From the IMG/VR virus record IMGVR_UViG_3300029549_000273: a DNA stretch of 45,135 nucleotides; one strand, 5' to 3'. The position numbers and the translations under genes were made by a program. Positions 2,761 through 38,789 of this stretch are shown here, in pieces (position 1 is the stretch's first letter; each line of letters starts with the position of its first letter). Source of the stretch: a virus (Duplodnaviria; Heunggongvirae; Uroviricota; Caudoviricetes). The notes under the pieces were generated by a model, which had not been told where the DNA came from, made no database searches, and saw nothing but the letters and a program-made list of their open reading frames with translations.

Positions 2761-2895
2761 TATATAAAAGCCAGCGCTCCCAATGGGGGCACCGGCTGAA
2801 TTTTCATTTTGTTTGTGATACTTCCTTTGTATGTTTTCAGTATACGGCTTGTAGGAGAAACCCCCTTGTTTCAACGGCGGGAACTTGAGAACCCG
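2761..2895 (-). promoter_or_regulatory. conserved regulatory module E1 (8-bp boxes / -10 / leader / attenuator hairpin)
   Basis: box GGAACTTG-AGAACCCG at 2880, -10 TATACT 2839-2844, 35-nt gap. Confidence 0.85.
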
Positions 2896-2920
2896 AATTC
2901 CCGCTCTTGGAACCGCAAAG

Positions 2921-2952
2921 AAAAAGCCCGCTCTGCATTATGCAGAGCGGGC
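2921..2952 (-). terminator. intrinsic terminator
   Basis: GCCCGCTCTGCA/TGCAGAGCGGGC stem plus T-run on minus strand. Confidence 0.75.
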
Positions 2953-2962
2953 GTGCTTAGTC

Positions 2963-3334
2963 TCAGAGATTGAGGTTAATGCGGCGGTTGAGTTTCTTCA
3001 CCTCGTCCTTGCAGACGGTGCTCAATTCCTCCACTTCAGGAGCGGAATACACATTTTTGAGCATCGCGCAGGCGTCCTTGAAGGTGACATCCGGGCTGGT
3101 TGTGAAGAGAATGTTGGAATCATCCATCAGCTCAACGAGCCAGACAATGTACTCGTCCGTCTTGTTGTCCATCGTCAAATTGTCGATGATGTGATTCGTT
3201 TCCAGAAGCTCTGAGACAGCGGAGAAGTTCTCCGCCCATGCCGCGTGGCACTCGCGCTGTGCCTTCTCGACCTCATAGAACTCCTCGTCCGTCATAGTGT
3301 CGGCGAATACGCCGTAACAGTACGCTTTAATCAT
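2963..3334 (-). CDS. acidic hypothetical protein
   Basis: AAGGAG RBS, 123 aa. Confidence 0.65.
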   Translation of the reverse strand: MIKAYCYGVFADTMTDEEFYEVEKAQRECHAAWAENFSAVSELLETNHIIDNLTMDNKTDEYIVWLVELMDDSNILFTTSPDVTFKDACAMLKNVYSAPEVEELSTVCKDEVKKLNRRINLNL

Positions 3335-3346
3335 AATTTTGTCTCC

Positions 3347-4300
3347 TTATCGAAAGTCGGTATTCTCAAACAGATAGTCCACGACAATCTGTTCCGTCCG
3401 CTGCCGGGAAAGTCTCATTTTCTGAATGACTTCCACATCAGGGAACAGGTTTCTGATATGCCGCGAAGCACGAATAGCTCGCGACAAATCTTCGTCATCG
3501 CTGGCGTTATTCTCCACGAGGCACAACAGGTCATAGACCGGTGCGGAAGAAATGCTTAGGATAGAATAGATGGAGCATCTGCGGTTGAGCTTTTCGCATA
3601 CATCTCGCATCGTCTCCATGGGCGGCAGCGTGACGCAGATGCGTCCGTTGCAGTCATTCTTGAAGCATTTACCTCTTCCCGTCCCGGTTTTCTTACGGAG
3701 GCTCTCACGCCATCTGTCGTCCTCTCCATACAATCCGGAGCACCTGTCCGCCGGCCACCTTGGGTCACGAACATAGACGCACCACGTTGAGGAGTTGCTG
3801 TTTCTGTCTTCGAGCTTCACATGGGCGATGTATGGATTTGCTGCCTTGAGTCGGTCCAGTGAATCGTCTGCCATGTTCAGGTCCTCAAGGATTTCCTCTG
3901 TCGTTCTTCCCCCGCAATCCGCCGTCCGAATACAGGCGTCTGAAACAGACCGGGTAGAATAGCAGTATTTCAGAGCTTGACATACGGCGGAAACCGTTGC
4001 GTTCGCGGGTAGGGACAGTTCAATGCGGATATTGCAATCCAGTGTTTTCGCTGCTTCTTCGCAGTTCCATGCGTCAGAGCTGTGCGTCGCGGGGCGTCTG
4101 AAGTCCATCAGATAGACGGCCCAGATACTCCGTTCGCTTTCTGCCTGAATGGGATGTAAATTTGCAATGAACGGGTTTTCCCTGCGCAGACGCAGTATCC
4201 GGTCGTGTTCCTCCTTTCTCGCCAGCGCCGCGAATTCGCGGCTGTCCCTATCAGGATGATAGAGGAAAAAGAAGGCTGGTATGGAGTGTTTTCTTTTTAT
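3347..4300 (-). CDS. hypothetical protein with internal tandem domain duplication; probable ATA start (317 aa)
   Basis: frame is open 64 codons upstream of the called ATG (4108) to ATA at 4300 behind GGAGG; the extension resembles the second repeat. Confidence 0.55.
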   Translation of the reverse strand: MKRKHSIPAFFFLYHPDRDSREFAALARKEEHDRILRLRRENPFIANLHPIQAESERSIWAVYLMDFRRPATHSSDAWNCEEAAKTLDCNIRIELSLPANATVSAVCQALKYCYSTRSVSDACIRTADCGGRTTEEILEDLNMADDSLDRLKAANPYIAHVKLEDRNSNSSTWCVYVRDPRWPADRCSGLYGEDDRWRESLRKKTGTGRGKCFKNDCNGRICVTLPPMETMRDVCEKLNRRCSIYSILSISSAPVYDLLCLVENNASDDEDLSRAIRASRHIRNLFPDVEVIQKMRLSRQRTEQIVVDYLFENTDFR

Positions 4301-4312
4301 GCCACCCCTCCC

Positions 4313-4936
4313 TCACATCTCGAAACCGATGTCTCGGACGGGGTGCTTGGTCCCATAATCCTCATTGAACTGCTCCGCTGCCGGCTCTGGTACATAGCTG
4401 TCCCCGTCCGGCGTAAAGCGCCCATCAAGGATGATTTTCTGAAGTGTCTTTGCCGACAGGTCTTCGTCCGGGCCAAAGATAGCGGCTTCCTCCTCAGCGG
4501 TAATCCGAAGTGAAACGCCAAGCCGCGCCCACAGCTTGCGTGTGAGTGGCTTCTCACCGGAGGCAAAGTTGAACTGTGGGGCCTGCCGACGCTGCGCACA
4601 ATGCGTGAGCCATGCCTGAACCTCGTCTGTCCAATATTTCCTTCCGGCTGTATGACGGCCATCTGAAAAAATGATGCCTTTGCTGGACTCAATTTGGTGA
4701 ATGAAGATAGTCACTTCACCGCGAATCGGTTGAAACTTAATCGCCCACGGGCCATCCGCGTGAATCTTTCTCGCGGAAGCCGGCGTAGGAAAGCTCATAG
4801 CCCCCGTGTTGCTGGAGTAGTCCTGCTGCATCTGGTCGAATATCCAGTTTTCCAATTCGGAAAGGCTGGCAAAGGATTTCGCTTCAACTTTCCGCCAGAA
4901 GTCGTTCAGGTATCTTTCTAACTTTACGTTTAGCAT
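4313..4936 (-). CDS. hypothetical protein
   Basis: AAGGAG RBS before MLNVK. Confidence 0.65.
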   Translation of the reverse strand: MLNVKLERYLNDFWRKVEAKSFASLSELENWIFDQMQQDYSSNTGAMSFPTPASARKIHADGPWAIKFQPIRGEVTIFIHQIESSKGIIFSDGRHTAGRKYWTDEVQAWLTHCAQRRQAPQFNFASGEKPLTRKLWARLGVSLRITAEEEAAIFGPDEDLSAKTLQKIILDGRFTPDGDSYVPEPAAEQFNEDYGTKHPVRDIGFEM

Positions 4937-5055
4937 TTTTAGTTCTCCTTTCATTTGCGGCCGCTCAAAGCGGAAATCAGCTGCGCGAGGGAAGCCTGTT
5001 CTCCATTGTCGAGGATTTTCATATTCATCTTTCTCCTTGCGTGATTATTTTTTTG

Positions 5056-5198
5056 TATATAAAAGTCAGCACCCCCCAATGAGGCGCTGGCTGAACTTTC
5101 TTTATGTTTGTGATACTTCTTTTGTATGGTTTCAGCATACCGGCGGAGTGAGAAATTGTGCTATTTCTTAACAGGGAACCTGAGAATATGGGAACTTG
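5056..5198 (-). promoter_or_regulatory. conserved regulatory module E2
   Basis: boxes GGAACCTG AGAATATG GGAACTTG from 5175; -10 TATGCT 5134-5139; 35-nt gap. Confidence 0.85.
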
Positions 5199-5260
5199 AT
5201 TGCGATAAGGCCCGAAAAATGCCAGCGGATTGTAAGTCCGCTGGCATTTAGTGCATATAA

Positions 5261-6727
5261 TCATGCAAACTGTACCTGTCTCTGCGCCTGAAGGATACGC
5301 AGAATACAGCGCTTTATAAACTCACCGATTGCTACAGGCACGCTGTTTCCTACCTGCTGCTGCATCTGTCCGAGCGTTCCGCAAATGCGGAAATCCTTCG
5401 GCAGCCCTTGCAGAGCCTTCGCCTCCGCTACTGTCAGCGTTCGGTTCTCCAACGGATGAATGAGCGGAGGTTTCCGCCAATTCACAATGGTCGGAGAAGG
5501 CTCGTTCCATGCCAGACGCCGGTAGGTACAGGAATGGCGGTTTTTGCTTTCCGTACGGTATTCTTCTGGGATAGAGGCATAGTTGCCGCCCTGTGGCACG
5601 AAGCTCATACGCTTCTCCACCTCCGGACTTGGCTTGGTCACATCACCGTAATTGCTCCAGGATGCGTCCACTTTACCGATAGCATCTCCTGCCGTCCGGT
5701 ATTTCCCTGCCAGCGTAATGTCTGCCAGCTTTGGTGTACCGATGCGGCTGCCGAGGATAACAGCACGTTTCCGCGTTGTATAGCCTCCGACTTTGCAATC
5801 CTGCACGATACCGGAATCCAGCTCATAGCCGAAACTCTCAGCCTTTTCGCGGACTGCGGCATAGTAGGAACCACCGCAGGCGGTAAGGACTTCCGGTACG
5901 TTTTCGATAGCAAAGACTTTCGGATTGAGTGTTTCAACAATGCGCATATACTGCATCAAAAGGTCGCTGTCCGGATGGTCTTCTAACCGCGTGTGCCGGT
6001 TGGCGTTGCTGAACGGTTTGCAGGATGGACCGCCGACAATAACATCGGGAGCCTTTACCGTGCTGTCCAGCGGGAAACCATTCTCCTTGGTAAACGCTTT
6101 GTGAACATCCCCGTGAACGATGTGCATACCGATGTTCTGACGATAGGTCTGGCAGGCACCGGCGTCGTAGTCGATGGCATACTGGATGCTGAACCGCTCG
6201 TCCTTGAAAAACGGCCAGTCGAGGATGCCAGCACCTGAGAACAGAGACACCACAGAATATATATCTGGTAAATCCTTCTGAATTGCAGCGATGTCCAGCG
6301 GTGCTTTGCTGGATGCAAGGTATTCGTCCAGCGTGATTTGTGTGCCTTCCAGAATACGGGACACCGCGCAGCTGTCGCTGATGCCCACGACCTTTCTGGC
6401 CTGAGCCAGAAGCGTTCGTGGAAATTGCAGGACAACCGCGTGCTCCGCTTCACCCGAAACAAGGATACTTTCCGCCGTGATATGCAGACGGATATTTTCC
6501 ATGCCGGCAATCGCATCGAGCACTTCCCTGTTTCGCAGGTCGATAAGCGGGTTCCAGCCGGAGCCAGACCTCTTCCGCGACACGGTATAGCGACCCGTTT
6601 TAGACGGGACGATGCGGATGCCGGAGTTGCTGATGATGTAGTCGTACCGGCTTCCAATTTGCATGGTCTCTGTAGGCGTAAAACTGAACGTCAGCCCTCT
6701 TTTGCTTTCCTTAATTTTTTTGTCCAT
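5261..6727 (-). CDS. DNA (cytosine-5) methyltransferase with N-terminal extension, orphan
   Basis: LFSGAG, GGPSC, ENV, RTLT..EA, GNSV motifs; start MDKK after AAGGAG. Confidence 0.9.
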   Translation of the reverse strand: MDKKIKESKRGLTFSFTPTETMQIGSRYDYIISNSGIRIVPSKTGRYTVSRKRSGSGWNPLIDLRNREVLDAIAGMENIRLHITAESILVSGEAEHAVVLQFPRTLLAQARKVVGISDSCAVSRILEGTQITLDEYLASSKAPLDIAAIQKDLPDIYSVVSLFSGAGILDWPFFKDERFSIQYAIDYDAGACQTYRQNIGMHIVHGDVHKAFTKENGFPLDSTVKAPDVIVGGPSCKPFSNANRHTRLEDHPDSDLLMQYMRIVETLNPKVFAIENVPEVLTACGGSYYAAVREKAESFGYELDSGIVQDCKVGGYTTRKRAVILGSRIGTPKLADITLAGKYRTAGDAIGKVDASWSNYGDVTKPSPEVEKRMSFVPQGGNYASIPEEYRTESKNRHSCTYRRLAWNEPSPTIVNWRKPPLIHPLENRTLTVAEAKALQGLPKDFRICGTLGQMQQQVGNSVPVAIGEFIKRCILRILQAQRQVQFA

Positions 6728-6782
6728 TTTCTTTCTCCTTTTGAGAAGAAGGCGGCTGTTCTCAGCCGCCTTCTTCGTTTCG

Positions 6783-6980
6783 TTATTCATCATCATCTTC
6801 GCAGATATGCTCGTCCAGCGCACCGTTCTTCACGCAATCCTCGCAGAAGACAGCACCGCAGTCCGCGCAATCTACAGCCAAATCCTCTCTGCGGAGATGC
6901 TTCCCACAGTTGCAGCAGGAAAACAGCGTAGAGCCGATAGGGCGAAGAAATCTGGTGTATTTACTCTCCTTATTGGGCAT
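6783..6980 (-). CDS. small Cys-rich zinc-finger-like protein
   Basis: CCNC..CADC..CEDC..HIC pattern. Confidence 0.6.
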   Translation of the reverse strand: MPNKESKYTRFLRPIGSTLFSCCNCGKHLRREDLAVDCADCGAVFCEDCVKNGALDEHICEDDDE

Positions 6981-7245
6981 CTCTATTTTCCTCTCTTTCT
7001 GTGTCGGCGGATTCACAATGATGATGGACAATCACCGGGTCATCGCGGCCTATGTCATATACCGTTGTCAGCATATCATGGGTGCCGCTGTCATACTCCG
7101 TACAGGCCAACAGCTCAGGCTCGCATCCTTCGCGGAGCAATTCGACATAAACGCCGGGGTAATCCGCCATTATATCGCTATTCTCGTGCTTTGCGTAAAT
7201 GTGCAGGTCGCCCATCGGGGTTTTGACATGAAATTCTCGCTTCAT
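6970..7245 (-). CDS. hypothetical protein
   Basis: AAGGAGAAATGAAAATG start, first gene after E3. Confidence 0.6.
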   Translation of the reverse strand: MKREFHVKTPMGDLHIYAKHENSDIMADYPGVYVELLREGCEPELLACTEYDSGTHDMLTTVYDIGRDDPVIVHHHCESADTEREENRDAQ

Positions 7246-7282
7246 TTTCATTTCTCCTTTTCTGTGATGGTTTTGTGATATG

Positions 7283-7411
7283 TTAAAGCCAGCATCCGCA
7301 ATGGATACTGACTGAATTTTCTTTATGTATGTGATACTTCCTTTGTATGGTTTCAGCATACCGGCGGAGATGGAAAACGGCTCATTCCTCTATCGAGAAC
7401 CTAAGAACCTG
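7283..7411 (-). promoter_or_regulatory. conserved regulatory module E3
   Basis: boxes AGAACCTA AGAACCTG from 7396; -10 7355-7360; 35-nt gap. Confidence 0.85.
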
Positions 7412-7420
7412 GGAGTGCGC

Positions 7421-7451
7421 AAAAAAGGACCGGCAGGAAATCCTGCCGGTC
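7421..7451 (-). terminator. intrinsic terminator
   Basis: GACCGGCAGG/CCTGCCGGTC stem plus T-run on minus strand. Confidence 0.7.
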
Positions 7452-7466
7452 ACGAGAAATGTACAA

Positions 7467-7898: not shown

Positions 7899-7899
7899 G

Positions 7900-8490
7900 T
7901 TAAACCCGCTCCTGCCGTTTGATGTACTGGTAAACAAGGTCCGGAATCTCGTCTTCAAGACCCTTAACTGAAGCGAAATTGTTGCGAAAAACAACATCGC
8001 AGCATTCCTGTAGACCGTAGAGTGCGTAGGTTTTCGGGTTCGATGCGATACGGCGTGCTGGGGCGAACGCGATTCTGTCATGCTCAACGCGCTCGCTGAC
8101 AGCTTCCTTACTGTCGCCGCGTGCTCTCATGCGGCGCTTACAGACTTCTTCAGCTGCGAACAGCCCGATGACCTTCACGCCCTTTTTGCCGCTGTAATGC
8201 TCCTTCATGTAAGCCACACCAGCAGGGTCAATGGCGTAGATATCAGAGACTTCTACCATCTCGGCCGGAACGCCGTAGCGATGCCCGTCAAACACGGTAT
8301 ACGCGCACAGATTTTCCAGCTTGTCAAACTCCTCCGGAGTCACGAAGGTATGTCCTCCCTCGCCCTCAAAGCGGGGCGGGCGCTCCGTGTACGAGAGGAC
8401 CTGCTTGAGACGGTATTTCTCTTCGAGGCGGTTTGCCACCATCGTCTTGCCGGACCCGGATGGCCCAACGATAAGATAGATATTTTTCAT
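7900..8490 (-). CDS. guanylate kinase-like protein
   Basis: GPSGSGKT P-loop, SYTERPPR, YG motif. Confidence 0.8.
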   Translation of the reverse strand: MKNIYLIVGPSGSGKTMVANRLEEKYRLKQVLSYTERPPRFEGEGGHTFVTPEEFDKLENLCAYTVFDGHRYGVPAEMVEVSDIYAIDPAGVAYMKEHYSGKKGVKVIGLFAAEEVCKRRMRARGDSKEAVSERVEHDRIAFAPARRIASNPKTYALYGLQECCDVVFRNNFASVKGLEDEIPDLVYQYIKRQERV

Positions 8491-8510
8491 ACATCTTTCT
8501 CCTTTTTTGT

Positions 8511-8792
8511 TCAGAATAGCTGAATGCCAAACTTTTGAGCCGCTTGTACCAGAATGGCGTACTTTTCATCCGGCTCCGCTTCTGCAAATTTGCGTGAGGT
8601 TCCGGCCCTCACGGTTAATTCCAGCGCATACGGATTGTCCACCGTTGTGCAGTATGTGGACGCTGCCGCCAACTGTGCGGCAGTCATCCGCGTCGGCACT
8701 TCGAGCGTTGTGCCGCTCCGTTCAACATAGTGCCGGGTAATTCTATCCCTGCGCCACGGAACGAATGTCAGGTCGATTTTATTTTTGTGCAT
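8511..8792 (-). CDS. hypothetical protein
   Basis: GAGG RBS, operon context. Confidence 0.55.
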   Translation of the reverse strand: MHKNKIDLTFVPWRRDRITRHYVERSGTTLEVPTRMTAAQLAAASTYCTTVDNPYALELTVRAGTSRKFAEAEPDEKYAILVQAAQKFGIQLF

Positions 8793-8834
8793 TGTCGTTT
8801 TCCTCTATTTGCCTTAGCAGAACAGGCCGCTGTT

Positions 8835-9149
8835 TCACAGCAGCCCATTCTTGGTTTTGAATTCCAGTTTTTGTTTATCCGAGAATTTTTCGTAACGTTG
8901 GACAAACTCAACAATGAGCTTTTCCACGGCGTCCGGGGTGGCATACAGGTTATTTGCCCAGGCGCGGCATTTTCCGTTGTATCGGAGCAGAACCCCGATA
9001 TTCCTGGATGCAGCAGCGTAAAACACCGCAGGTATGAACTCAACGCCATCCTGCGTACTGTGAGAGTGCTTGGCGTATAACCCACTGACCCTGACCACTA
9101 CACCGGTCTCGGTCGGTGCATTTAACGATTTCTTGCATTGACATTTCAT
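8835..9149 (-). CDS. hypothetical protein
   Basis: GGAGG RBS before MKCQC. Confidence 0.55.
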   Translation of the reverse strand: MKCQCKKSLNAPTETGVVVRVSGLYAKHSHSTQDGVEFIPAVFYAAASRNIGVLLRYNGKCRAWANNLYATPDAVEKLIVEFVQRYEKFSDKQKLEFKTKNGLL

Positions 9150-9176
9150 AAAAAATACCTCCAACATAGTTTGGGA

Positions 9177-9208: not shown

Positions 9209-9225
9209 GGCCCCGGTGTCCCTTT

Positions 9226-10017: not shown

Positions 10018-10049
10018 TTTTCCATTTCTCCTTTTTGAGTTAAGATTTT

Positions 10050-10216
10050 TATATAAAAGCCAACGGTTCGAAAAAACCGTCGGCTGAATGTTCTGTATTG
10101 CTTGTGATACTTCCTTTGTATGGTCTCAGCATACCGGCATCTTGCCGATTCGCGTCTTTTCCCCGTCAAGAACCTTGGAATATGGGAACCTTGGAATGTA
10201 GGAGGCTCGGAACCTG
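10050..10216 (-). promoter_or_regulatory. conserved regulatory module E4 (six tandem boxes)
   Basis: AGAACCTT GGAATATG GGAACCTT GGAATGTA GGAGGCTC GGAACCTG 10169-10216; -10 10128-10133. Confidence 0.85.
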
Positions 10217-11763: not shown

Positions 11764-11797
11764 TTTTCAATTTCTCCTTTTCGATTTTAAGATGTTT

Positions 11798-11929
11798 TAT
11801 GTAAAAGCCAGCGGCTCGAAAACCGCTGGCTGAATTATTGAACTGTTTGTGATACTTCCTTGGTATACTCTCAGCATACGGCAAAGTCTCAAATAAGCCT
11901 GATTCTATTTGCAAGAACCTGAGAACCTG
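11798..11929 (-). promoter_or_regulatory. conserved regulatory module E5
   Basis: AGAACCTG x2 from 11914; -10 11873-11878; 35-nt gap. Confidence 0.85.
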
Positions 11930-11979
11930 ACTTCTTCAAAGAAGGCCGACAGGAAAACCTGTCGGCCTGGTATCTGGGA

Positions 11980-14087: not shown

Positions 14088-14121
14088 TTTTTCATTTCTC
14101 CTTTTTTTGAATTAAGATTTT

Positions 14122-14253
14122 TATATAAAAGCCAGCGGTCTGAAAACCGCTGGCTGAATTGTTTCTTTAATTGTGATACTTCTTTGGTATGGTCTTAGCA
14201 TACCGGCAAGCGCAAAAAACGGCTCATTTTTTTACTGGGAACCTAAGAACCCG
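14122..14253 (-). promoter_or_regulatory. conserved regulatory module E6
   Basis: GGAACCTA AGAACCCG from 14238; -10 14197-14202; 35-nt gap. Confidence 0.85.
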
Positions 14254-14265
14254 GAAAGATGCAAT

Positions 14266-19081: not shown

Positions 19082-21632
19082 GTAGGGTAAGAACCCGGCG
19101 CCTTGCCATATTGCTATGGTAGGTTTCCGAGAACTCCCCTCCGAACCGGACTTACACCTCTCAGCGTATCCGGCTCTCCAGATGTCAGTCTAATTTCCCA
19201 GCGTGTAACTTATCGTGACAGTAGACGCAGAGTGCCATTGTCTTGCGCTTACGCCCAATCATGGCGATTTCCCATTGTTTTCTGCCACTTAAATCTTTGA
19301 GTTTTCGTACATGGTGTATTTCAAGCGGCACATTTTCTGCGCCGCACCACTCGCATTGGTTCGCTTGCAGTCTTTTAATCAGGCTGTTGCGTCCATAATT
19401 CTCAACGGCTCGTGCTACTATATCGGGATTTCCGCTTTCTACTTTGGTATTCCGGCGGAAACCGTCATTGTAGAACAGCACTTTTCCCACCTTGCCGTTT
19501 TTCTTCGGATACTCCACAACAAAATCTTTCCCTTGACGGTACTTGCGGATAATTCTGCTGATTCGTGTCCGATATTTTCCAGCAAAGGTTTTGAGCATAC
19601 TGTATCTCATTACATAGTAGAAGTTATTGAGTACAGACACGTTGTTTGCAAGTCGGTAGTAGTTATACAATCCACGGATTTCTGCGTTGTATTGGTTTAG
19701 GATTTCCAAATCGTCCAAGTGCAACAGGCGAGTGCGCCGGACAGGTTCCCAAACCTCTTTGTTTCCATTTTGTTTGTCGTATTTAATCTTGAGGGCATTG
19801 TAGGAGAACAGTCGTTTTACCCACTTATCATGGGGAACATAAAGTAAGACTTTTCCATTGTTTACCCGTCTGGTAGCCCCGGTTTTGGTCTTTTTGTTGT
19901 GTTCGCCTTTGGCGATTGTGACCTCATATCCCAAGAACTTCGCAGCGTCGTGTCCATGAGTAATCAATGTCTTTTCCTCGGACATTTCCAGATGGAGTTT
20001 GTCCCGGATAAAGCAGCCTACATCTTGTTTAATCTGTTCTGCGTCCTCTTTGCTGCCGATAACTCCAATTAAGAAATCATCGGCATATCGGATATAGCAA
20101 ATCCGTTTATAGCTATCGTCCATCTGGTCGCTATACGGCATAGATTTCAGACTACGCCGCAGTTCCCGGATTTCTGCAATTAAGCCCTCTTTTTCTTCCT
20201 CGCTCATTTTAGAGAGATTTCTTTTAAGCCTTTGTTCTTTCCCCCGGCAGACATCCAGCTTCTTCTTGAACGCAGGATTGATTTTACGGCGGTTTCCGCA
20301 GTTGAATTTCTCTGCATACTCTGCCATATAGCTATCCAGTTCGTTCATGTAGATGTTTGCAAGGATAGGGCTGATGATGGAGCCTTGCGGAGTGCCGGAA
20401 TAAGTATTGTGATAATTCCAATCCTCCATATATCCAGCTTTCAAGAACTTCCAGAGCAGACCGATGAAATGTTCATCTGCAATCCGCTTTCGCAAAATAG
20501 CAATCAACACATGATGGTCTACGTTGTCAAAACAGCCCTTTATATCTCCCTCAACGAACCACTTTGTCCCCGTAAAATATTTCTGCACATATTTGAGTGC
20601 CGTATGACAGCTTCTGTTTATACGGAAACCGTGGGAATAGTCGCTAAAGGTTGGCTCATAAATACTCTCTAAGATGAGCCGCACCACCTCCTGTATCAGT
20701 TTATCGTCGAATGACGGTATCCCCAGAGGACGCATTTTCCCATTGGATTTCGGGATATACGTTCTCCTTGCCGGGTTAGGCTGATAACTAAAATCCCGCA
20801 TCTTTTCAATGAGGGCGTTTATCCTTGCCATTCCCATTCCGTCAATGGTTTTGCCGTCTGTTCCGGCTGTCATGTTGCCTGGTTTCGCCTGTATCCGCTG
20901 ATATGCCAGCAGATAGAATTGTGGATTGTACAGGTTGCGGTATAACCGCTCGTACTTGTAACTCTTGTTACACGCCTTGGATTTTAGGCTTTCCAACACA
21001 TTTTCAGGACTTCTCATAATGCCTCACGCACCTTTCCTTTTTATGAATTGGTTGACATCCTGCCTCCCTTCGCCATGTAGACGGCTTTCCCGCCCTCGGA
21101 CTACTACGGAGGCTCCGTTGCCATGCCGGATATTCAGCGTCATCTTTCTTGGGTTTTTACCCCTTGAAATTTATCGCCTTGCGGCATTACGCATAGCCGG
21201 ATAGTTCCGGCGTTCCGGTTTAGGCAATCTCCAGTTAGACACTTTGGGAAAAGCGTATTGTGATGTCGGTAGTGGGTTTTCGTCCTTTTCCGCTTACTGC
21301 GGCTGGCTGTCATAAGTATCGTGCGGTCTGTGTTTACCTGTCACATTCCGCTATGACATACGGCGAATACAACCATCCTGCGCCGTCGGGTCGAGTATCC
21401 CGCCTCGGACTGCCCTTAAAGCAGTTTAGCCTTGCTCCTCATTCACAATGTTGCGTCTTGCCGCTCAGTCGTGGGTAGATGGTTTTCCCAACTTGCGATT
21501 TTTCCGATACGCTATTGTCCCCCTTGTGGTTTCCCTCCGAGGTAAATCGGATGACGCTAAAGTGACGCTTTTCACGTCTTTGATACTTTTCTTTACCGGC
21601 TTGCTAAAGCCGGGTTCCCAAAATGCCCGCAC
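19082..21632 (-). mobile_element. group IIA intron (LtrB-like), apparently full length
   Basis: 5' GTGCG at 21632; domain V GAGCCGGATACGCTGAGAGGTGTAAGTCCGGTTCGG 19176-19141; domain VI with bulged A 7 nt from the ...ACCCTAC end; candidate EBS1 ACCGC (21327-21323) pairs with exon GCGGT; lower GC. Confidence 0.88.
19185..21017 (-). CDS. ltrA: group II intron reverse transcriptase/maturase with HNH endonuclease
   Basis: RPLGIP, GTPQG, YIRYADD, domain X, CEWC...EIHH...CVYCH. Confidence 0.93.
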   Translation of the reverse strand: MRSPENVLESLKSKACNKSYKYERLYRNLYNPQFYLLAYQRIQAKPGNMTAGTDGKTIDGMGMARINALIEKMRDFSYQPNPARRTYIPKSNGKMRPLGIPSFDDKLIQEVVRLILESIYEPTFSDYSHGFRINRSCHTALKYVQKYFTGTKWFVEGDIKGCFDNVDHHVLIAILRKRIADEHFIGLLWKFLKAGYMEDWNYHNTYSGTPQGSIISPILANIYMNELDSYMAEYAEKFNCGNRRKINPAFKKKLDVCRGKEQRLKRNLSKMSEEEKEGLIAEIRELRRSLKSMPYSDQMDDSYKRICYIRYADDFLIGVIGSKEDAEQIKQDVGCFIRDKLHLEMSEEKTLITHGHDAAKFLGYEVTIAKGEHNKKTKTGATRRVNNGKVLLYVPHDKWVKRLFSYNALKIKYDKQNGNKEVWEPVRRTRLLHLDDLEILNQYNAEIRGLYNYYRLANNVSVLNNFYYVMRYSMLKTFAGKYRTRISRIIRKYRQGKDFVVEYPKKNGKVGKVLFYNDGFRRNTKVESGNPDIVARAVENYGRNSLIKRLQANQCEWCGAENVPLEIHHVRKLKDLSGRKQWEIAMIGRKRKTMALCVYCHDKLHAGKLD

Positions 21633-21748
21633 ACCGCCTTTGGATGAAAAGCGGCGCTTCTGGACGCGCGGTAGACTCCGAGAAAGAGTCCGTAGACTTC
21701 GGCAGTCACGATGGCTGCCACGAGGATGGTGTTGAGGATGTTGAACAT
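21633..21748 (-). CDS. exon 1 of intron-interrupted small membrane gene
   Basis: AAGGAG RBS, MFNILNTILVAAIVTAEVYGLFLGVYRASRSAAFHPKA runs up to the intron. Confidence 0.55.
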
Positions 21749-22070
21749 AGCTATTTCTCCTTCATGAAGTTTTTTTAACTCCCATTCGCTCTGCGGCCGG
21801 GAGATAAATTACTTAAAATCAGAATTGCACGGCTGCGTCAGTAACAGCTGCCCCGTCTTAATTTGGGGCATACCGCATTACTGGTGCATCATTTTTCGAA
21901 GGAACCCGCGAAGATTCCTGCGCGTGCGGACTGAGTGTTGAAATTTGGTCCGATACGGCATCGACAGACCGGCTCTGCGGCTGCGTCCGTGTCGGCGCTT
22001 GCTCCAACACTTGAAATCGTCAGGTGTTATCAGACCAAATTACCCTTTGGGTAGATTTGAGTTGATGTAA

Positions 22071-22158
22071 GATACTTCTTTAATGTTACTCTGAGTTTAG
22101 CGCAAAAAAAGAAAAAGCCATGAATTATTGAATGGGAACCCAGGTTCCTGCATTCCTT
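22071..22158 (-). promoter_or_regulatory. degenerate regulatory module E7
   Basis: GATACTTC core, -10 TAAACT 22094-22099, box GGAACCCA at 22135 (35-nt gap) then inverted boxes. Confidence 0.6.
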
Positions 22159-28789: not shown

Positions 28790-29146
28790 TCACTTCACCT
28801 CCAATTCCACGATTTTCCAGTCATTGTCTCCGTGATGGTTCGCCCATGCGTTGTCTTCGTGGATTTCAAAGTCATCGTAGCAATCTCCGATATGCAGATT
28901 ATTGGCATCCGCAACGCCGGTCTGAGCAATCTCAGCCAGCATCTGTGCCTGCGCTGCTTCGAGAGATGGAAACTGCTCTGCGGTGATTTCACGGTCAAGG
29001 ACCGAAATCAGCAGGTATGGCTTTGCGGCAGTCTTGTTTTGCTCTTCCATTGCCTTTGCAATACGCTCTGCGCTCTTTACAAGGGATGGAAAGTCGTGAT
29101 TGAGGAACCGTTGTCCGGCGACTGTTTCAGCAAAATTCATTTTCAT
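28790..29146 (-). CDS. hypothetical protein
   Basis: first gene after E8. Confidence 0.65.
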   Translation of the reverse strand: MKMNFAETVAGQRFLNHDFPSLVKSAERIAKAMEEQNKTAAKPYLLISVLDREITAEQFPSLEAAQAQMLAEIAQTGVADANNLHIGDCYDDFEIHEDNAWANHHGDNDWKIVELEVK

Positions 29147-29173
29147 TTCTCCTTTTTGTTTATGAAATTTTTA

Positions 29174-29314
29174 TATATAAAAGCCAGCATCCGCAATGGA
29201 TGCTGACTGAATTTTCTTTATGTATGTGATACTTCCTTTGTATGGTTTCAGCATACCGGCAGGCACAGAAAACGGCGCATTCTACCGCTCGGAACCTGAG
29301 AACCAAAGAACCTC
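29174..29314 (-). promoter_or_regulatory. conserved regulatory module E8
   Basis: GGAACCTG AGAACCAA AGAACCTC from 29291; -10 29250-29255; 35-nt gap. Confidence 0.85.
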
Positions 29315-30046: not shown

Positions 30047-30135
30047 GATTAAATCTCCTTTTTGTGTGATAAGTGTTGGGTGGTCTACATCCGTGCTTTT
30101 TGCGGCAGCGGCGAGGCAAATGCAATAAGTGTTGG

Positions 30136-30213
30136 ATACTTCCTGAATATACCTCAATACTACCATCTCACTCCCTTCTGAATAACCTTTTTCTATAGGA
30201 ACCTAAGAACCTC
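30136..30213 (-). promoter_or_regulatory. degenerate regulatory module E9
   Basis: GATACTTCC core, -10-like TAGTAT 30157-30162, GGAACCTA AGAACCTC at 30198 (35-nt gap). Confidence 0.6.
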
Positions 30214-30225
30214 GGCACCTATAGA

Positions 30226-32922: not shown

Positions 32923-32968
32923 TTTGCGAATCTCTTGACTTTTTTCACTTCTCTGTTATACTGAACAT

Positions 32969-33044
32969 AGTGATTGTGTCCCGGAATGGTTGTGCGCCAC
33001 GGGACCTGGCTGGAGAACCCTTTCCCGGTTCTCCAGCCTTTTTT
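32969..33044 (+). ncRNA. candidate ~75-nt small RNA
   Basis: TTGACT-16nt-TATACT promoter with extended TG (32935-32962), hairpin, 12-bp terminator plus T6, no RBS-linked ORF. Confidence 0.5.
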
Positions 33045-33253
33045 GTTTCCTTTGAGAGTGCGCAAAACACACGAAAAACGCATGGAATGTGCGTTTTCCA
33101 AAAAAGAAAAGGCACCCTTCGGGTGCCTTTTCGCAAGGTTGTGATTCAATTCTCCTCCTTTTTCGGGGTATTCGACATTTTGTGTGGGATTAGCTGGGGC
33201 TGACGAAGAGCCAGACTCAGCGCAATCCGCAGTTTTGTTGTAAGCATATACAA

Positions 33254-33780: not shown

Positions 33781-34777
33781 TGGACTTCACCTCCAGCTTC
33801 ACCGACTCGATGGCGCGAATAGCGTTGCCGAATCGCTTTGTGAGATGGTGGTCTTCTGCCCATTTCAGTACCGCTTTTTCACTTGGAAACATTTTGGCCT
33901 TCTCAGAAGAAGTGGAAGTCCAGATGCGGCTTCTCGTGAGCTTCACGATATAGGCTCCAGCCCTGTCTCCTTCCGTGATACGCAGAGCAAACAACTTCTC
34001 CGCAGGCTTGGAACTTTTAGCACTGTCAGCGCCAGCCCGTTCAAATGTGACCTTACTTGCGTGGAACGTGATACTGCCGAGTTCAGCAATGGCGTCGTCG
34101 ATGTTCTTAAACACCTTTGCAGCAGCTCTATTGCGTTCGTAATTCCGGCAGCTGTGCTCCGTCTTTGTGTAGTAGCCATAAGGAGCCACTTTCACGACAA
34201 CCGGTTCGTCATCACTCAGGGATGCCATCTTTTCGATGGAAAGCGGTTCACGGCCCTCAAAGGACAGATACGGGTAGAATTCCGTTACCGTTTTGTCGCT
34301 TCCATATACCTTCCACGCGCTTTCCATTTCCTCGGCAAACGCCTCAAGTTCCTGTGTTGTCTTGCAGTAGCAGTTGTGGACTGTTTCGCGCTTGTCCCCA
34401 CGCCATACAACGATTCTGCCGTACAAAGGCGTATTGGGGCGGAAAAAGTTGATGCGTTCGATGTTCATGGCATTTCTGATGCCGCTCTCAACCCACTTGA
34501 GCACATCCTTGCAATACAGCCACTTTCCGCCCTGCTTCGCAAATTCGTAATCCGCGCCGTCACCGGTCGAGATAGCTCTCGCCCGTTCCAGCAGCTCTTC
34601 CGCAGGGATGGCAATGCGCTTATCCTTGTTGCTCAGCGTCATGGGATACCAGTTCCGTTCGAGGACTTCTCTTCCCTGAATAAATTCTGTGCAGTTGTTT
34701 GAACCGCTCAAAATCATTGGGATGATGCCTTTTGTCGTTTTTACAAACTGCCTCCCGTAGATAATGGAATAACTCAT
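33770..34777 (-). CDS. hypothetical protein (GSNNC motif)
   Basis: 335 aa, first gene after E10. Confidence 0.7.
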   Translation of the reverse strand: MSYSIIYGRQFVKTTKGIIPMILSGSNNCTEFIQGREVLERNWYPMTLSNKDKRIAIPAEELLERARAISTGDGADYEFAKQGGKWLYCKDVLKWVESGIRNAMNIERINFFRPNTPLYGRIVVWRGDKRETVHNCYCKTTQELEAFAEEMESAWKVYGSDKTVTEFYPYLSFEGREPLSIEKMASLSDDEPVVVKVAPYGYYTKTEHSCRNYERNRAAAKVFKNIDDAIAELGSITFHASKVTFERAGADSAKSSKPAEKLFALRITEGDRAGAYIVKLTRSRIWTSTSSEKAKMFPSEKAVLKWAEDHHLTKRFGNAIRAIESVKLEVKSNGC

Positions 34778-34811
34778 TTTTCATTTCTCCTTTTCATGTT
34801 TTCTGGTGGGA

Positions 34812-34943
34812 TATATAAAAGCCAGCGGCCTGAAACCGCTGACTGAACTTTCCTTGTGTTTGCGATACTTCCTTTGTATGCTCTCAGTATACCGACAGAA
34901 ACGGGAGACACCTCATTCCCCCCTTCAGGAACCTGAGAACCCA
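34812..34943 (-). promoter_or_regulatory. conserved regulatory module E10
   Basis: GGAACCTG AGAACCCA from 34928; -10 TATACT 34886-34891; 36-nt gap. Confidence 0.85.
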
Positions 34944-34997
34944 CAATCGTTGAAAAAGGAAAAAGCGCAGAGAGGAAATTCCCCTCTGCGCTTTTTG

Positions 34998-35447
34998 TTA
35001 AGCGTATCTGACCGCCGCAGCGAATACCATCCGGTTGAAGCCGGTGGACTTGCCGCAAATTACATAGCGGTCATTCTGGTAATGCGTAGGTTCGGTGTAC
35101 CCTGCGGCACGAAGCTCCTTCTCTGTGCCGTATACTGCCTCCAGTGTGACGTTACAGAAGCGAGGGGTGTATACTCTGTCACCCGCTTCCAGGTCTCCTC
35201 GTTCCTTGCGGGCAAGCTCCTCACGGTACGCCTGCTTGTATTCCGGCTGAGAGAGCACCGACACACGGGGCGTACTGCTGCTGTCCTCAAAGATGCGATT
35301 CACGGAGGAAATGACCTTGCCGGATGCCGCTTTCTTCGCGCAGAAGCGATACAGTTCCTCCTGGGCGTTCTCTTCGTCGCATTCCACGAAGCAGCTGCCA
35401 TACTGGAAATTGACGCGGTAAATGATGCCTTTAATTTCGTGATACAT
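34998..35447 (-). CDS. hypothetical protein
   Basis: AAGGAG RBS before MYHE. Confidence 0.6.
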   Translation of the reverse strand: MYHEIKGIIYRVNFQYGSCFVECDEENAQEELYRFCAKKAASGKVISSVNRIFEDSSSTPRVSVLSQPEYKQAYREELARKERGDLEAGDRVYTPRFCNVTLEAVYGTEKELRAAGYTEPTHYQNDRYVICGKSTGFNRMVFAAAVRYA

Positions 35448-35460
35448 GATTTTTCTCCTT

Positions 35461-35697
35461 TCAGTCGGCGCTATCTTTGCCTTCGCACTCGGCCCATTCG
35501 GCCTCACAGGGCCAAATCTCGGAGCCGAACCCTCTGTCCTGCTCCCATTCCTGGAACAATTCCTGAATGGGGGTGGAGATGCGGTCGCTGTCCTCCGGGT
35601 CATCGTACTGAAGGCTTTGCAGTTCCTCCATCAGTTCACGCAAGGAATGCCCGTGGTCGAGCATCCATTGCAGTCGAAATTTCTCATAATCGCTCAT
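35461..35697 (-). CDS. small acidic hypothetical protein
   Basis: AAGGAG RBS. Confidence 0.6.
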   Translation of the reverse strand: MSDYEKFRLQWMLDHGHSLRELMEELQSLQYDDPEDSDRISTPIQELFQEWEQDRGFGSEIWPCEAEWAECEGKDSAD

Positions 35698-35745
35698 ATT
35701 GTTCTCCTTTCTCGGCGGGGCCAGAAATCCGGCCCCGCATTCTGT

Positions 35746-35961
35746 TCACTTTTTTGACTTCCGTAGTGGACATTTCCTTGGAGCCGTTTCACCGTAGAAA
35801 ATGATTGGCAGCTTAGTCTCGCCGTCCTTGTGATGGCAAACATAGCCCTTCTGGCCAAAAAGTCCAGAGCGCCAACTCCCACTATTTCCTTTCCTCGGAA
35901 AGTCATAGGCCTTGGCAAACTCACAGTCTCTGCATTTTTGCATAGATGTCACCAGCCGCAC
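35746..35961 (-). CDS. small Cys-rich protein (CxxC...CPL)
   Basis: operon context. Confidence 0.5.
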   Translation of the reverse strand: MRLVTSMQKCRDCEFAKAYDFPRKGNSGSWRSGLFGQKGYVCHHKDGETKLPIIFYGETAPRKCPLRKSKK

Positions 35962-36743
35962 ACAGTTGCCTTCTTGGCGTAATAGTCGCTGGCTTCTCTC
36001 ACCGAGATGATGTCGAAGCAGGATTCCAGAGTGTGCATGACCTTACGAATCGTTTCTGTATCCAGGTCTGCACGTTCCATAGCGACAGCGGCATAGCCCA
36101 AGCAGGCATCATTGCGCCACGGACCGTTGAGAGAATCAAGCGTTTCTGTGGGCTGAGCGGCATCTTCCTGAGCAGGAGTTTCCGCATCCGGCTGCTGAGT
36201 GCCGCCGTATTCCTCAAAGGTATCGAAATCTCCAACCTCCGCCACACCGTCGCAGGTGCATTCACGGTCAACGAAGTCCTTATTGCCAAGTTCGATGTCG
36301 CCGGCGTTGCACAGCTCCTGCGCGGTCACTTCGGCGTCGATGCGCTCGGCGGCCCAGACGATAACGGTGCGGGAGAGCGTTTCCTGAACGGTCACGCAAT
36401 ACGGGAGTTTACCGCTCTCCGGAGCGGTTCTCACAGACTCCCAGCCCTTACTCGCCTCTTCGAAGCGCTTGACCAGCTCTTCGGCGGTGATTTCGAGTGT
36501 AGGCTTCTGCCCGGTCTCCTCGATGCGCTCCCACTCGAACCACGGATGGTCCGAGTCCGTTTCCGTATCGAATTTTCGCTCCGGCATCCCTACACGGGAC
36601 GGCACGAAATACTCCTTTTCGTCCAAGCAGGCGATGATGCGCTGCTCCTGCTCCTCGGTCATCTCACCAAGGATGACGCATTCGTTCTGGACCTTGTAGT
36701 TGTCCGCATCGCGGTACAGGTAATGAATTCTGGTATTCATCAT
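35949..36743 (-). CDS. multidomain protein with a DpnD/PcfM-like domain
   Basis: YCVTVQETLSRTVIV.A....A.......GDIEL..DF; start MMNTR after GAGGAG. Confidence 0.6.
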   Translation of the reverse strand: MMNTRIHYLYRDADNYKVQNECVILGEMTEEQEQRIIACLDEKEYFVPSRVGMPERKFDTETDSDHPWFEWERIEETGQKPTLEITAEELVKRFEEASKGWESVRTAPESGKLPYCVTVQETLSRTVIVWAAERIDAEVTAQELCNAGDIELGNKDFVDRECTCDGVAEVGDFDTFEEYGGTQQPDAETPAQEDAAQPTETLDSLNGPWRNDACLGYAAVAMERADLDTETIRKVMHTLESCFDIISVREASDYYAKKATVCGW

Positions 36744-36762
36744 TTCTTCTCCTCTTAGTAAT

Positions 36763-37215
36763 TTAATCAAATGCTTCCAATTCATTGAAAAGCTGTTCCA
36801 AATCGGAATTTTTCCTGATAGTGGGAATATGTCTCCGGTTTTCACAGAGACTTTCAACGGCGTTCTCGTCGAGCTGGTTGAAATAGTCAGGACTATCGCA
36901 ACTTACCAAGCTGCCATAGCAGCGGTCGAAATAGAAATAGTTGCTATGTGGATTGAAGGCTCCATATTTCTTGTTTCCACCGCTGTCCAGACTCCAGGTG
37001 TCTGCGTCATAGCCGTCGAACCCGCAGCGCAGAATATCAACCGGCTCTTTTCCGGCGAACAGGTCGTTCAGCTCGACCATAGAACGGCAGCGAGTATCGC
37101 CCAAATACCCGTTCTCGTTACAGTCGTCCAACTCTTCAATGGCTGTGGTGAAGACAGACTTGTTATCCTTGAAGAATTGGATGATTTCCTCGATAATGCT
37201 TTCCTTTGTTCTCAT
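36763..37215 (-). CDS. acidic hypothetical protein
   Basis: 150 aa, RBS. Confidence 0.65.
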   Translation of the reverse strand: MRTKESIIEEIIQFFKDNKSVFTTAIEELDDCNENGYLGDTRCRSMVELNDLFAGKEPVDILRCGFDGYDADTWSLDSGGNKKYGAFNPHSNYFYFDRCYGSLVSCDSPDYFNQLDENAVESLCENRRHIPTIRKNSDLEQLFNELEAFD

Positions 37216-37244
37216 TGGTTTTTCCCCTTTTCGGATTTAGTGTC

Positions 37245-37703
37245 TTACGCCGGTATCAGACCGAACGTTTCCTTAAACCAGCTTCTGATTTCCTCCTTGC
37301 TCGTCCCCGCTTTGAACGGAACCGCCGTAGGACTCTCCTGTGTGCCGCACCAGACCGTCCACTCTTCGCGGATGCGGCCCGTCGCGTCTCTTGGCGTCTT
37401 GGCGTAGTCCGTCCAAAGGGACTGTGCGATGTACTTCTTTGCCCACGTCTGAAGCTCTGCGCCCTCCTGCTCCAACACAGTATCCATATAGACCCTTGCG
37501 GAGATACCATCCAGGCTGTCGCCGCAATGCAAATCTATCTGCTTCTGTGCCCATCTGTGCATGAAAGCATACCCAGGCAGGTTTCGAAAACGCCAAATCC
37601 GAGCCGCGAAATTCTTTTCGTAGGCATACTGGACATGATTGTTCTGCTTCCAGCCCAAGGGTACAATGTTGAGCGGACCTTTCGGTAAATCTTCTCTCGT
37701 CAT
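37245..37703 (-). CDS. hypothetical protein
   Basis: AAGGAG RBS. Confidence 0.65.
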   Translation of the reverse strand: MTREDLPKGPLNIVPLGWKQNNHVQYAYEKNFAARIWRFRNLPGYAFMHRWAQKQIDLHCGDSLDGISARVYMDTVLEQEGAELQTWAKKYIAQSLWTDYAKTPRDATGRIREEWTVWCGTQESPTAVPFKAGTSKEEIRSWFKETFGLIPA

Positions 37704-37717
37704 GTTTCGAACTCCTT

Positions 37718-37894
37718 TCAGCAGATTCCGTTCTCTCTGAACTCTGTCAGCAGACCATAGCGCCGACCGAGTTGTTCAAAGACGGACTGCGCGATGGCAA
37801 GCTCCTCGTAGCTTATGGATTGCTCTCCAAACCGTTCCTGCCACTCGATAGCTTTCTCACGCGCCTTTTTCTTTTTTTCCTGATAAGTGCTCAT
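37718..37894 (-). CDS. small hypothetical protein, 58 aa (not in ORF track)
   Basis: MSTYQEKKKKAREKAIEWQERFGEQSISYEELAIAQSVFEQLGRRYGLLTEFRENGIC*, AAGGAG RBS. Confidence 0.65.
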   Translation of the reverse strand: MSTYQEKKKKAREKAIEWQERFGEQSISYEELAIAQSVFEQLGRRYGLLTEFRENGIC

Positions 37895-38097
37895 TCTTTC
37901 AATGTCTCCTTTTCGTTGATTTTTTTGGTATTTGCGAAAATAGGTGGGTGGAGAGAGTTGCTTGGGTTATCCCGCAAGCAACTCTCTTCTTATCTGTATT
38001 TAGCCTTTTGCAGGGCTTACAACGCCATGAAGATGTCTTCCGCATCAGGGGTTTCCCACGAAATCGTGTACATTGCTTTTTCTCCTTTTACAAAAAT

Positions 38098-38616
38098 TCA
38101 GAATTCCGCTTCGCATTCCTGAATGTTGTCCAGAACAGCTTTGACAGGGCAATCCAGACACGCGGTCTCAAAGTCCTTCAAAGTCACTGTGCCGTCCTCA
38201 GAGACGGAGGCATGGTCGCACTGAGCGCAGAAATTCCAGCAATCCTGCTGCGTCAGAGATGGCTCTCCAAGCAGCTCATACCAGGGGCGCGTATCAGGCG
38301 TTACATGGAACTTTGCCAGCGGGCAAACCGTTTCTGTCCCAATAAAGGGGCCGAGCTTGTCCTTGGACGGCTTATTGCTATGCCCACAATCGTAGGCACA
38401 GTAACACTGGCCACGGCCGCAAATGAGCTGAGCAATCAACTCGCGGTCTTTGAACTCCTCCACAGAGCAGTTCTTGATGAGCCATCCGTACTTGTCGGAC
38501 AGGGCGTCAACCGCCGCATCCGCATCGTCGGCACCGTCAACGATTTCCTCGGTAGGAAGAGAAACTTCCTCCCCATCCGTCTCCCAGTCGATGCTGGTTA
38601 TCATGAATTTTGCCAT
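38098..38616 (-). CDS. acidic Cys-rich hypothetical protein
   Basis: first gene after E11. Confidence 0.65.
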   Translation of the reverse strand: MAKFMITSIDWETDGEEVSLPTEEIVDGADDADAAVDALSDKYGWLIKNCSVEEFKDRELIAQLICGRGQCYCAYDCGHSNKPSKDKLGPFIGTETVCPLAKFHVTPDTRPWYELLGEPSLTQQDCWNFCAQCDHASVSEDGTVTLKDFETACLDCPVKAVLDNIQECEAEF

Positions 38617-38655
38617 TTCAAGTATTCTCCTTTCAGTTTTTTGACTGTTTTTTTA

Positions 38656-38789
38656 TATATAAAAGTCAGCATCCCTAACGGACGCTGACTGAACATTCTT
38701 TATGTTTGTGATACTTCCTTTGTATGGTCTGAGCATACCAGAAGATATGCAAAGCGTGAAATTTCCCGTCGCAGGAACCTAAGAACCTT
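38656..38789 (-). promoter_or_regulatory. conserved regulatory module E11
   Basis: GGAACCTA AGAACCTT from 38774; -10 38732-38737; 36-nt gap. Confidence 0.85.

Follow-up and report, generated by a model that had tools for sequence, protein, structure and literature searches.

The 45,135-nucleotide stretch analysed here (IMG/VR record IMGVR_UViG_3300029549_000273, hereafter the window) carries repeated copies of one short regulatory cassette, consisting of upstream 8-bp repeats, a predicted promoter without a −35 box, the conserved motif GAAGTATC and a covarying stem followed by a U-tract, and on the sequence comparisons given below this cassette family is real and undescribed. The window itself is part of an integrative conjugative element (ICE) of approximately 150 kb. 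We give an even chance to the reading that the cassettes form an ICE-wide antitermination gate, placed before about 20 operons, in which an early terminator would be bypassed by an element-controlled factor loaded at GAAGTATC. A literature search, with most subscription journals and supplements outside its scope, found no description of the element or the motif. The timing of transfer and establishment genes in large conjugative elements of gut Clostridia has been little studied, and with about 20 natural variants of one short cassette, some of them without the terminator, the roles of repeats, motif and stem are separable. If read-through is factor-loaded and processive, the element would hold an undescribed antiterminator and place its spread, over 150 kb, under one switch.

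The nature of the element is clear from genome G001, with which the window shares 93–99% identity over most of its length. The matching region of G001 is an island of about 150 kb with a GC content of 0.51 between flanks of about 0.62. It encodes a serine recombinase, VirB4, a coupling protein, pilins, a CHAP-lysozyme, Rep3 and ParA, along with topoisomerase III, an RpoD-like sigma factor, a primase and eight tRNAs; we assign it to the ICEs because of the recombinase, VirB4 and the coupling protein in an integrated low-GC island. No relaxase scores above cut-off in the element, and one weak MobH match falls below it. The IMG/VR records G002 and G403–G407 are filed as viral, yet they carry the same ICE genes and cassettes and are likely fragments of the ICE. 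In a search of genome contigs with the motif pattern, 14 matches sit on one Oscillospiraceae contig, 24 of the 38 are single matches without repeats or stem, and many of the matching metagenome loci come from human gut metagenomes.

Anatomy of the cassettes

Conservation by position was assessed over 21 cassette classes. At the upstream end, from about −69 to −48, the 8-bp sequence GGTTCYYA stands in two or three tandem copies, followed by a conserved A/T patch at −39 to −36 and by GGTATGCT, conserved at −14 to −7; no conserved −35 hexamer and no TTGACA box is found in these classes, and the spacer between the −35 and −10 positions is only moderately conserved. A TAnnnT hexamer lies 35–36 nt past the repeats and occurs as TATGCT, TATACT, TATTCT, TATGAT, TAGTAT or TAAACT, with T, A and the final T always kept. 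These three positions are the signature of a sigma-A −10 box. Since the hexamer keeps only them, we read it as a −10 box, which places the predicted +1 on the A of ATAC. With this numbering GAAGTATC, which begins 20–21 nt after the start of the hexamer, is predicted to occupy +9 to +16, the stem of 10–12 bp runs from +36 to about +62 and is followed by UUUUAUAU, and the start codon lies at about +104.

An earlier, sequence-only reading of the window had described nine full copies of a leader RNA in which a small purine-loop hairpin precedes a terminator-like stem. All nine are present on the minus strand (Table 1), and a search of the window with a covariance model of related copies gives these nine alone. 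The stems that the earlier reading quoted are found in copies 14190 (E6), 29243 (E8), 38725 (E11) and 10121 (E4), as are its tail variants, UUUAAC in copy 7348 (E3) and UUUUACAU in copy 11866 (E5). What it described is, however, one half of a larger cassette; the 8-bp repeats further upstream, the lack of a −35 box and the setting in an ICE went unnoticed, and the U-tract that it placed just before the ribosome-binding site (RBS) in fact lies about 25–35 nt ahead of it. As an observation on cassette history, promoter and leader halves are swapped between cassette classes across records (L220, L237 and L157), which suggests recombination or gene conversion between copies.

The leader stem and the motif GAAGTATC

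The alignment draws on 208 matches with flanks from the window, G001, IMG/VR records and metagenome loci, which yield 69 distinct leaders; 35 distinct stems and two G001 copies with differently oriented repeats make up the 37 rows of the covariation set. That the stems vary yet keep pairing on the minus strand, as first noticed in the earlier reading, is borne out in this set: over 10 stem pairs, 95.4% of the cells pair, 7 of the 10 pairs show changes on both sides, and one is seen as G-C, U-A and C-G with zero mismatches. The covariation score of 0.366 compares with 0.224 ± 0.015 in shuffles and is reached by none of 500, the count of covarying pairs being reached by 10 of 500. The shuffles take no account of relatedness among copies that form a gene family, so the covariation is to be taken as strong support and not as a probability. 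Counting the outer 10 pairs of nine stems gives 77 Watson-Crick pairs, 11 G-U and 2 C-A, which agrees with the earlier remark that nearly all non-Watson-Crick positions are G-U on the minus strand, and three minus-strand leaders fold with z scores of −4.3 to −5.4.

The stem and U-tract most likely terminate transcription about 70 nt after the predicted start. This terminator or attenuator reading, already put forward on first inspection, is supported by the covariation, the strand bias and the fixed site between the predicted promoter and the RBS, and also by the long downstream operons with internal terminators discussed below. The common stem is present in 21 of the 24 promoter clusters collected from the window, the element in G001 and four IMG/VR records. 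The leader U-tract is interrupted; interrupted tracts are typical of NusA/NusG-dependent terminators in B. subtilis (PMC8060035). Duplexes between the upstream region and the 5' arm (−0.5 to −6.8 kcal/mol) compare with −15.8 to −21.5 kcal/mol for arm to arm, and no competing cis RNA fold overlapping the terminator was found, both in nine leaders. Since no cis fold displaces the terminator, read-through would need a trans factor.

It is also important to consider what else such a stem could do. The terminated RNAs of about 70 nt could themselves be the product, as a small-RNA family, sponge or antisense regulator, because an RNA bounded by this promoter and terminator would carry the invariant motif unpaired in its 5' part; yet each copy precedes an RBS with its start codon by about 100 nt and a second promoter is lacking, and twenty dispersed copies before genes fit a role in cis, so that we find this most improbable. 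Hardly any weight, likewise, goes to a role for the stems in DNA that is single-stranded during transfer, where they would serve as promoters of the Frpo type or as sites at which a primase assembles. G-T pairs form in single-stranded DNA too, and the element encodes a primase, a protein resembling single-stranded DNA-binding protein (SSB) and establishment-type genes, but the promoter part (−70 to +30) folds no better as DNA than its shuffles on either strand (z −1.4 to +1.9, 11 copies), and DNA folding of 11 copies found no Frpo-type long hairpin that puts the −10/−35 region in duplex. The stem is moreover fixed between promoter and RBS with a 3' U-tract, and the transferred strand is not assignable from a relaxase match as weak as the MobH one.

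The ATAC-N7-GTAT unit about 20 nt ahead of the stem had been taken for a boxB-like protein-recruitment hairpin in nine copies. Its inverted repeat is there, while an RNA hairpin is not supported: the minimum free energy is 0 kcal/mol, pair probabilities are 0.07–0.37, and the leader alignment holds no compensatory change in the two arms. ATAC/GTAT is invariant in the 37-row alignment because the search pattern demanded it. When clusters were collected from the repeats and TAnnnT, with the arms not demanded, RGAAGTATC was found at +8 to +16 in 23 of 24 forward clusters with the 35–36 nt spacing, the sole exception carrying a canonical TTGACA box; the other 16 of the 40 repeat clusters, with different spacing or reversed, have no motif. 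RGAAGTATC follows the −10 box at 19 nt (20 in one cluster). Within the window GAAGTATC occurs 11 times, without exception on the minus strand and with one fixed offset to a TAnnnT box, and in the window, the G001 element and the four IMG/VR records together TAnnnT stands 20–21 nt upstream of it at 86 of 96 sites, 85 of these 86 having the repeats. In 10 of the 86 promoter copies the 5' arm is unable to pair (ACAT in 6, ACAC in 3, AAGC in 1), and one copy with a broken small hairpin still keeps the terminator stem; loop and 3' arm are invariant and the 5' arm variable. Pairing thus breaks while RGAAGTATC stays, so that the sequence and not the pairing is conserved.

A recruiting hairpin of AUAC/GUAU arms and purine loop, bound by a boxB- or LoaP-like RNA-binding antiterminator, consequently seems improbable to us. 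Pairing is possible in 76 of the 86 copies, with the ATAT, ATGC and GTAC variants keeping it through G-U, and LoaP requires a small leader hairpin together with a NusA-dependent terminator (PMC12691694). The G-U variants carry no weight, since three of the four possible 5'-arm transitions keep pairing anyway, the fold is of no stability, uncompensated and broken in 10 of the 86 copies, and no NusG paralogue was found. A protein-stabilised hairpin may still form, as 22 of the 24 promoter clusters can pair in most copies.

The motif could instead be the −10 box of a private promoter, used by the element's own sigma or a sigma-like factor, with transcription starting near +23 and the stem serving as a hairpin for 5' stabilisation or processing instead of as a terminator. 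The layout does suit a −35/−10 pair, the invariant 8-mer lying 14 nt behind another conserved hexamer, and the element encodes an RpoD-like sigma factor and fusion proteins of sigma region 4 and an alpha C-terminal domain (sigma4-alphaCTD). Against the private promoter, the upstream hexamer retains through all its variants just the three letters typical of a −10 box (T, A and the final T), a stabiliser would not need a conserved U-tract, and the three-unit sigma4-alphaCTD protein occurs at full identity only in G001. Because regions 2.3–2.4 and 4.2 of the element's sigma retain the residues with which the host RpoD recognises promoters, a private sigma promoter is less likely, and we rate it improbable.

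Operons, repeats and candidate factors

The G001 element contains 20 cassette promoters, 16 of them with the common stem. The operons that they head encode uncharacterised small proteins, a DNA methylase, YqaJ with RecD2, the SSB-like protein and transfer genes. The 29 promoters listed as canonical (TTGAC-N17-TGnTATAAT type) differ from them, and because these lack the motif the element has, by its promoter sequences, two promoter classes. The type IV secretion (transfer) operon begins at a cassette and extends over 24 kb (G001 307,452 to about 283,600); it has four predicted internal terminators, and a strict promoter pattern finds no canonical promoter inside it. The recombination operon has one predicted terminator ahead of recD2. 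The SSB-like gene keeps promoter and motif in front of an unrelated and longer terminator, and a terminator therefore recurs independently of the common stem. We call this gene SSB-like on our own reading of its SSB-type acidic tail; the protein has no Pfam match.

Some cassettes stand apart from the others. The leader of the SSB-like gene (L020:19142-19289, minus strand) can be folded into a three-way junction, with the motif bound to a perfectly complementary stretch and, in a zipper-like manner, the initial 8 nt joined to the last part of the U-tract. Before the transfer region, the cassettes at G001 307,440 and 311,846 (L005 and L006) have mixed or inverted 8-bp repeats, unlike the rest.

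Genes behind a leader terminator and internal terminators would need read-through in trans, and the invariant, strand-specific motif at predicted +9 is the obvious loading mark. In the antitermination gate proposed here, a protein bound to the repeats (likely of ParB type and encoded beside parA) would set initiation at the promoters without a −35 box, with a terminated RNA of about 70 nt as the default product. GAAGTATC would be read as sequence, either in nascent RNA or in non-template DNA, possibly during a promoter-proximal pause, and a factor loaded there would carry RNA polymerase past the leader terminator and the later operon terminators, so that transfer, recombination, SSB-like and establishment-type genes would come on together by one switch. 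A bolder version, in which the partition protein's repeats gate the −35-less promoters as one lock and a new Firmicute class of antiterminator (not NusG-, Q- or conAn-like), loaded at GAAGTATC and processive over about 20 operons including the conjugation operon, is the other, appears doubtful.

As to the repeat binder, 8-bp repeats of this kind also adjoin the promoter of parA and are found in dense arrays after the rep genes (parS-like, and distinct from the iteron-like repeats before rep), which points to the small protein encoded after parA. This 153-aa protein is 97–99% conserved in three other records and has no Pfam or PDB match; a weak Atlas lead goes to PF18064 (26% of one cluster, score 0.90, rank 13). 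A ParB-type protein beside parA is most likely the binder. By eye, iteron-like 22-bp repeats stand before the rep genes and dense 8-bp repeat arrays after them at L025:2900-3260 and 5740-6780, where a small hydrophobic open reading frame (ORF) near 6235-6318, with terminators on both sides, resembles a type I toxin-antitoxin locus.

The position of these repeats is what a centromere-binding repressor would produce, and it speaks for control at initiation only, where repeats and GAAGTATC would be DNA sites for an activator and a repressor, with de-repression of the Reg576 kind once the element has been transferred, and the stem would merely reduce basal expression as a terminator that leaks and is not regulated. 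The near-fixed spacing of the motif from the −10 box and the weak U-tracts agree with this, as does Reg576 of p576, which binds paired heptamers upstream of four establishment promoters (PMC6294495). Such control leaves unexplained a 24-kb operon with four predicted terminators and a motif that is strictly strand-specific (11/11), and the Reg576 promoters have −35 boxes with operators beside or inside the promoter, whereas the cassettes have no −35 box and repeats 12 nt further up. We consider control at initiation with a leaky terminator to be unlikely, and nevertheless a rival to be taken seriously.

It is one of several points that weigh against the gate. The UUUUAUAU tract holds on average 5.8 T of 8 in 16 leaders as compared with 6.8 in 20 other element terminators, which were hand-picked from the G001 operon map, and with weaker U-tracts the leaders may simply leak. 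The common stem is missing from 3 of the 24 clusters, no early terminator is seen in two of these three (the window cassettes at 30150 and 22087) or in the G001 copy at 340,580, and metagenome copy L207, left out of the covariation set, has its stem deleted. The strict pattern used for the operon map could miss weak internal promoters. The carriers are closely related strains from a single family, with a sigma factor that is 98% identical, so the records are not independent. A covariance model run on family genomes matched 2 of 151, the second match being a generic terminator without the motif, which leaves no credible leader copy in the 150 other family genomes, and the leader model finds no match in NZ_AP023417.1 or OY725878.1 (VirB4 38% identical). 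No deep covariation set is available because credible copies are confined to close strains. A NusG-like factor, suggested earlier as the one to look for, was not found: PF02357 matches only the chromosomal nusG of G001, and no paralogue is found in the G001 element, G002, G403 or G404, although a very diverged one could escape this profile. Scans with Pfam, PHROGs and NCBIfam named no conAn1-, Q- or BglG-like protein, without a search directed at conAn1, and gave only generic sigma-4 helix-turn-helix (HTH) matches.

Among the proteins that could act in trans, two neighbours built of sigma-region-4 HTH and alpha-CTD-like units, one with three units and one with a single unit (L022:5800-8136 and 8069-9166, minus strand), lie upstream of the RpoD-like sigma gene. 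The three-unit protein has a full-length match only in G001, the one-unit version being 79% identical in three other records, and it is a weak candidate for the repeat binder. An S1-domain protein of the transfer operon (L023:13001-14251, minus strand) belongs to a family of over 300 representatives, whose members adjoin the coupling-protein gene in 6 of 7 loci examined; a homologue also occurs in a related element that has no match to the leader model. Given this neighbourhood and its presence in an element without leader matches, it is more likely part of the transfer machinery than an RNA-binding factor of the leader.

A candidate small RNA lies at 32935-33046 on the plus strand of the window, where a canonical-type promoter is followed by a gene-free two-hairpin unit of about 80 nt and a strong terminator, and it is found in G001, G002 and G403. 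The unit (+32969-33046) gives the best duplex with the leaders among 29 canonical-promoter transcripts. As an antisense RNA to them it was rejected, its net binding of −7.5 comparing with −7.6 ± 2.8 in shuffles, 21 of 40 of which were as good.

Known systems and further features of the element

Compared with described systems, the cassette would work much like Q/AlpA, LoaP or conAn, and its location is that of conAn and of the EGeRS1 and EGeRS2 sequences, but it appears to depart from each of these in a defining feature. Q of phage 82 (at PR') and AlpA of Pseudomonas likewise act on a promoter with a short leader, an early terminator and a conserved initially transcribed sequence (PMC4914094, PMC9371919). 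Phage 82 pauses at +25 (PMC4914094). In the cassette, AAGTAT at +10 to +15 resembles a −10-like pause element in part, agreeing with the −10 consensus at 3 of 6 positions and keeping its A and final T, but such mimicry does not account for the invariant G+12 and C+16. The Q and AlpA sites, however, lie between the −35 and −10 boxes of one promoter, while the cassette has its repeats at −48 to −69, no −35 box and about 20 copies, and no Q-like protein was identified in the element, where only generic sigma-4 HTH matches occur.

LoaP bypasses a NusA-dependent leader terminator in the dfn leader of Bacillus velezensis (PMC12691694), and the likeness extends to a small 5' element, a weak, probably NusA-dependent terminator and downstream operons with more terminators; LoaP, in contrast, is a NusG paralogue that needs an RNA hairpin, and in the ICE such a paralogue was not found and the small hairpin is unsupported. 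The conAn/cATT system of pLS20 and canT of Tn916 similarly concern a Gram-positive conjugation operon with internal and leader terminators (PMC8191782, PMC13401043, PMC11658703). Their reports describe one large RNA of hundreds of nucleotides at one operon, or a zipper antiterminator fold, whereas the ICE has a leader of about 70 nt without an alternative fold, repeated across the element, with zipper-like 5'-3' pairing only in the SSB-like leader.

EGeRS2 with Reg576 (p576) and EGeRS1 (pLS20) share with the cassettes a layout in which one regulatory sequence recurs ahead of dispersed operons whose establishment-type genes vary (PMC6294495, PMC8708921), paired short direct repeats upstream of the promoter and a candidate ribbon-helix-helix protein. 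The differences are that EGeRS2 has strong −35/−10 promoters under simple repression, in place of cassettes without a −35 consensus and with repeats ending at −48, and that EGeRS1 consists of 400–600 bp of inverted repeats; its mechanism is stated as unknown (PMC8708921). The cited descriptions of both mention neither a GAAGTATC motif nor the stem, and the ICE set includes the transfer operon.

Table 1. Cassettes and partition-locus features of the window (positions in the whole stretch; predicted +1 is the ATAC start of the nine full copies).
Feature	Span (strand)	Repeats	−10 box	Predicted +1	GAAGTATC	Stem	Remarks
Cassette 1	2732..2901 (−)	2880-2893	TATACT 2839-2844	2832	2817-2824	2769-2797	U-tract 2762-2769; gene starts 2731
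Cassette 2	5023..5196 (−)	5175-5188	5134-5139	5127	5112-5119	5064-5092	
Cassette 3 (E3)	7246..7417 (−)	7396-7409	7355-7360	7348	7333-7340	7287-7313	heads operon containing C-5 DNA methylase
Cassette 4 (E4)	10018..10190 (−)	10169-10182	10128-10133	10121	10106-10113	10058-10085	
Cassette 5 (E5)	11764..11935 (−)	11914-11927	11873-11878	11866	11851-11858	11806-11831	
Cassette 6 (E6)	14088..14259 (−)	14238-14251	14197-14202	14190	14175-14182	14130-14155	
Diverged cassette	21749..22156 (−)	22135-22149, head-to-head	TAAACT 22094-22099		22071-22078		
Cassette 8 (E8)	29141..29312 (−)	29291-29312, three	29250-29255	29243	29228-29235	29182-29208	
Diverged cassette	30047..30219 (−)	30198-30211	TAGTAT 30157-30162		30135-30142	no terminator stem	gene starts 30046
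Cassette 10	34778..34949 (−)	about 34927-34941	TATACT 34886-34891	34879	34864-34871	34820-34844	
Cassette 11 (E11)	38617..38795 (−)	about 38773-38787	38732-38737	38725	38710-38717	38664-38690	
153-aa gene	38846..39307 (−)						next gene after parA; candidate centromere binder of ribbon-helix-helix type that may also bind the 8-bp repeats
Repeat array	40164..40203 (.)						same 8-bp repeats; abuts −35 box of canonical parA promoter

The repeats of the diverged cassette at 30198-30211 are shared with a divergent canonical promoter at +30226. The other diverged cassette, at 22087, has a leader of about 340 nt (21749-22087, minus strand) that is predicted to be highly structured and lacks the common stem; it is nearly identical in related records, has no Rfam match and is a candidate non-coding or conAn2-like RNA. 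The gene behind it is split by a group II intron with a reverse transcriptase/maturase/HNH ORF (19082-21670, minus strand); the gene that it has entered encodes a small membrane protein and is uninterrupted in G001. This intron is the sole Rfam match above the gathering threshold in the window, with none for the leader, and seven stretches of G001 gave tRNAs and HEARO RNAs only, again with none for the leader. The tRNA cluster of eight genes lies inside the element near the recombinase (L020:13324-14819, minus strand), two HEARO RNAs stand beside an RRXRR-HNH (IscB-like) ORF (L022:10831-14184, minus strand), and a TnpB gene is found at L023:2298-3440.

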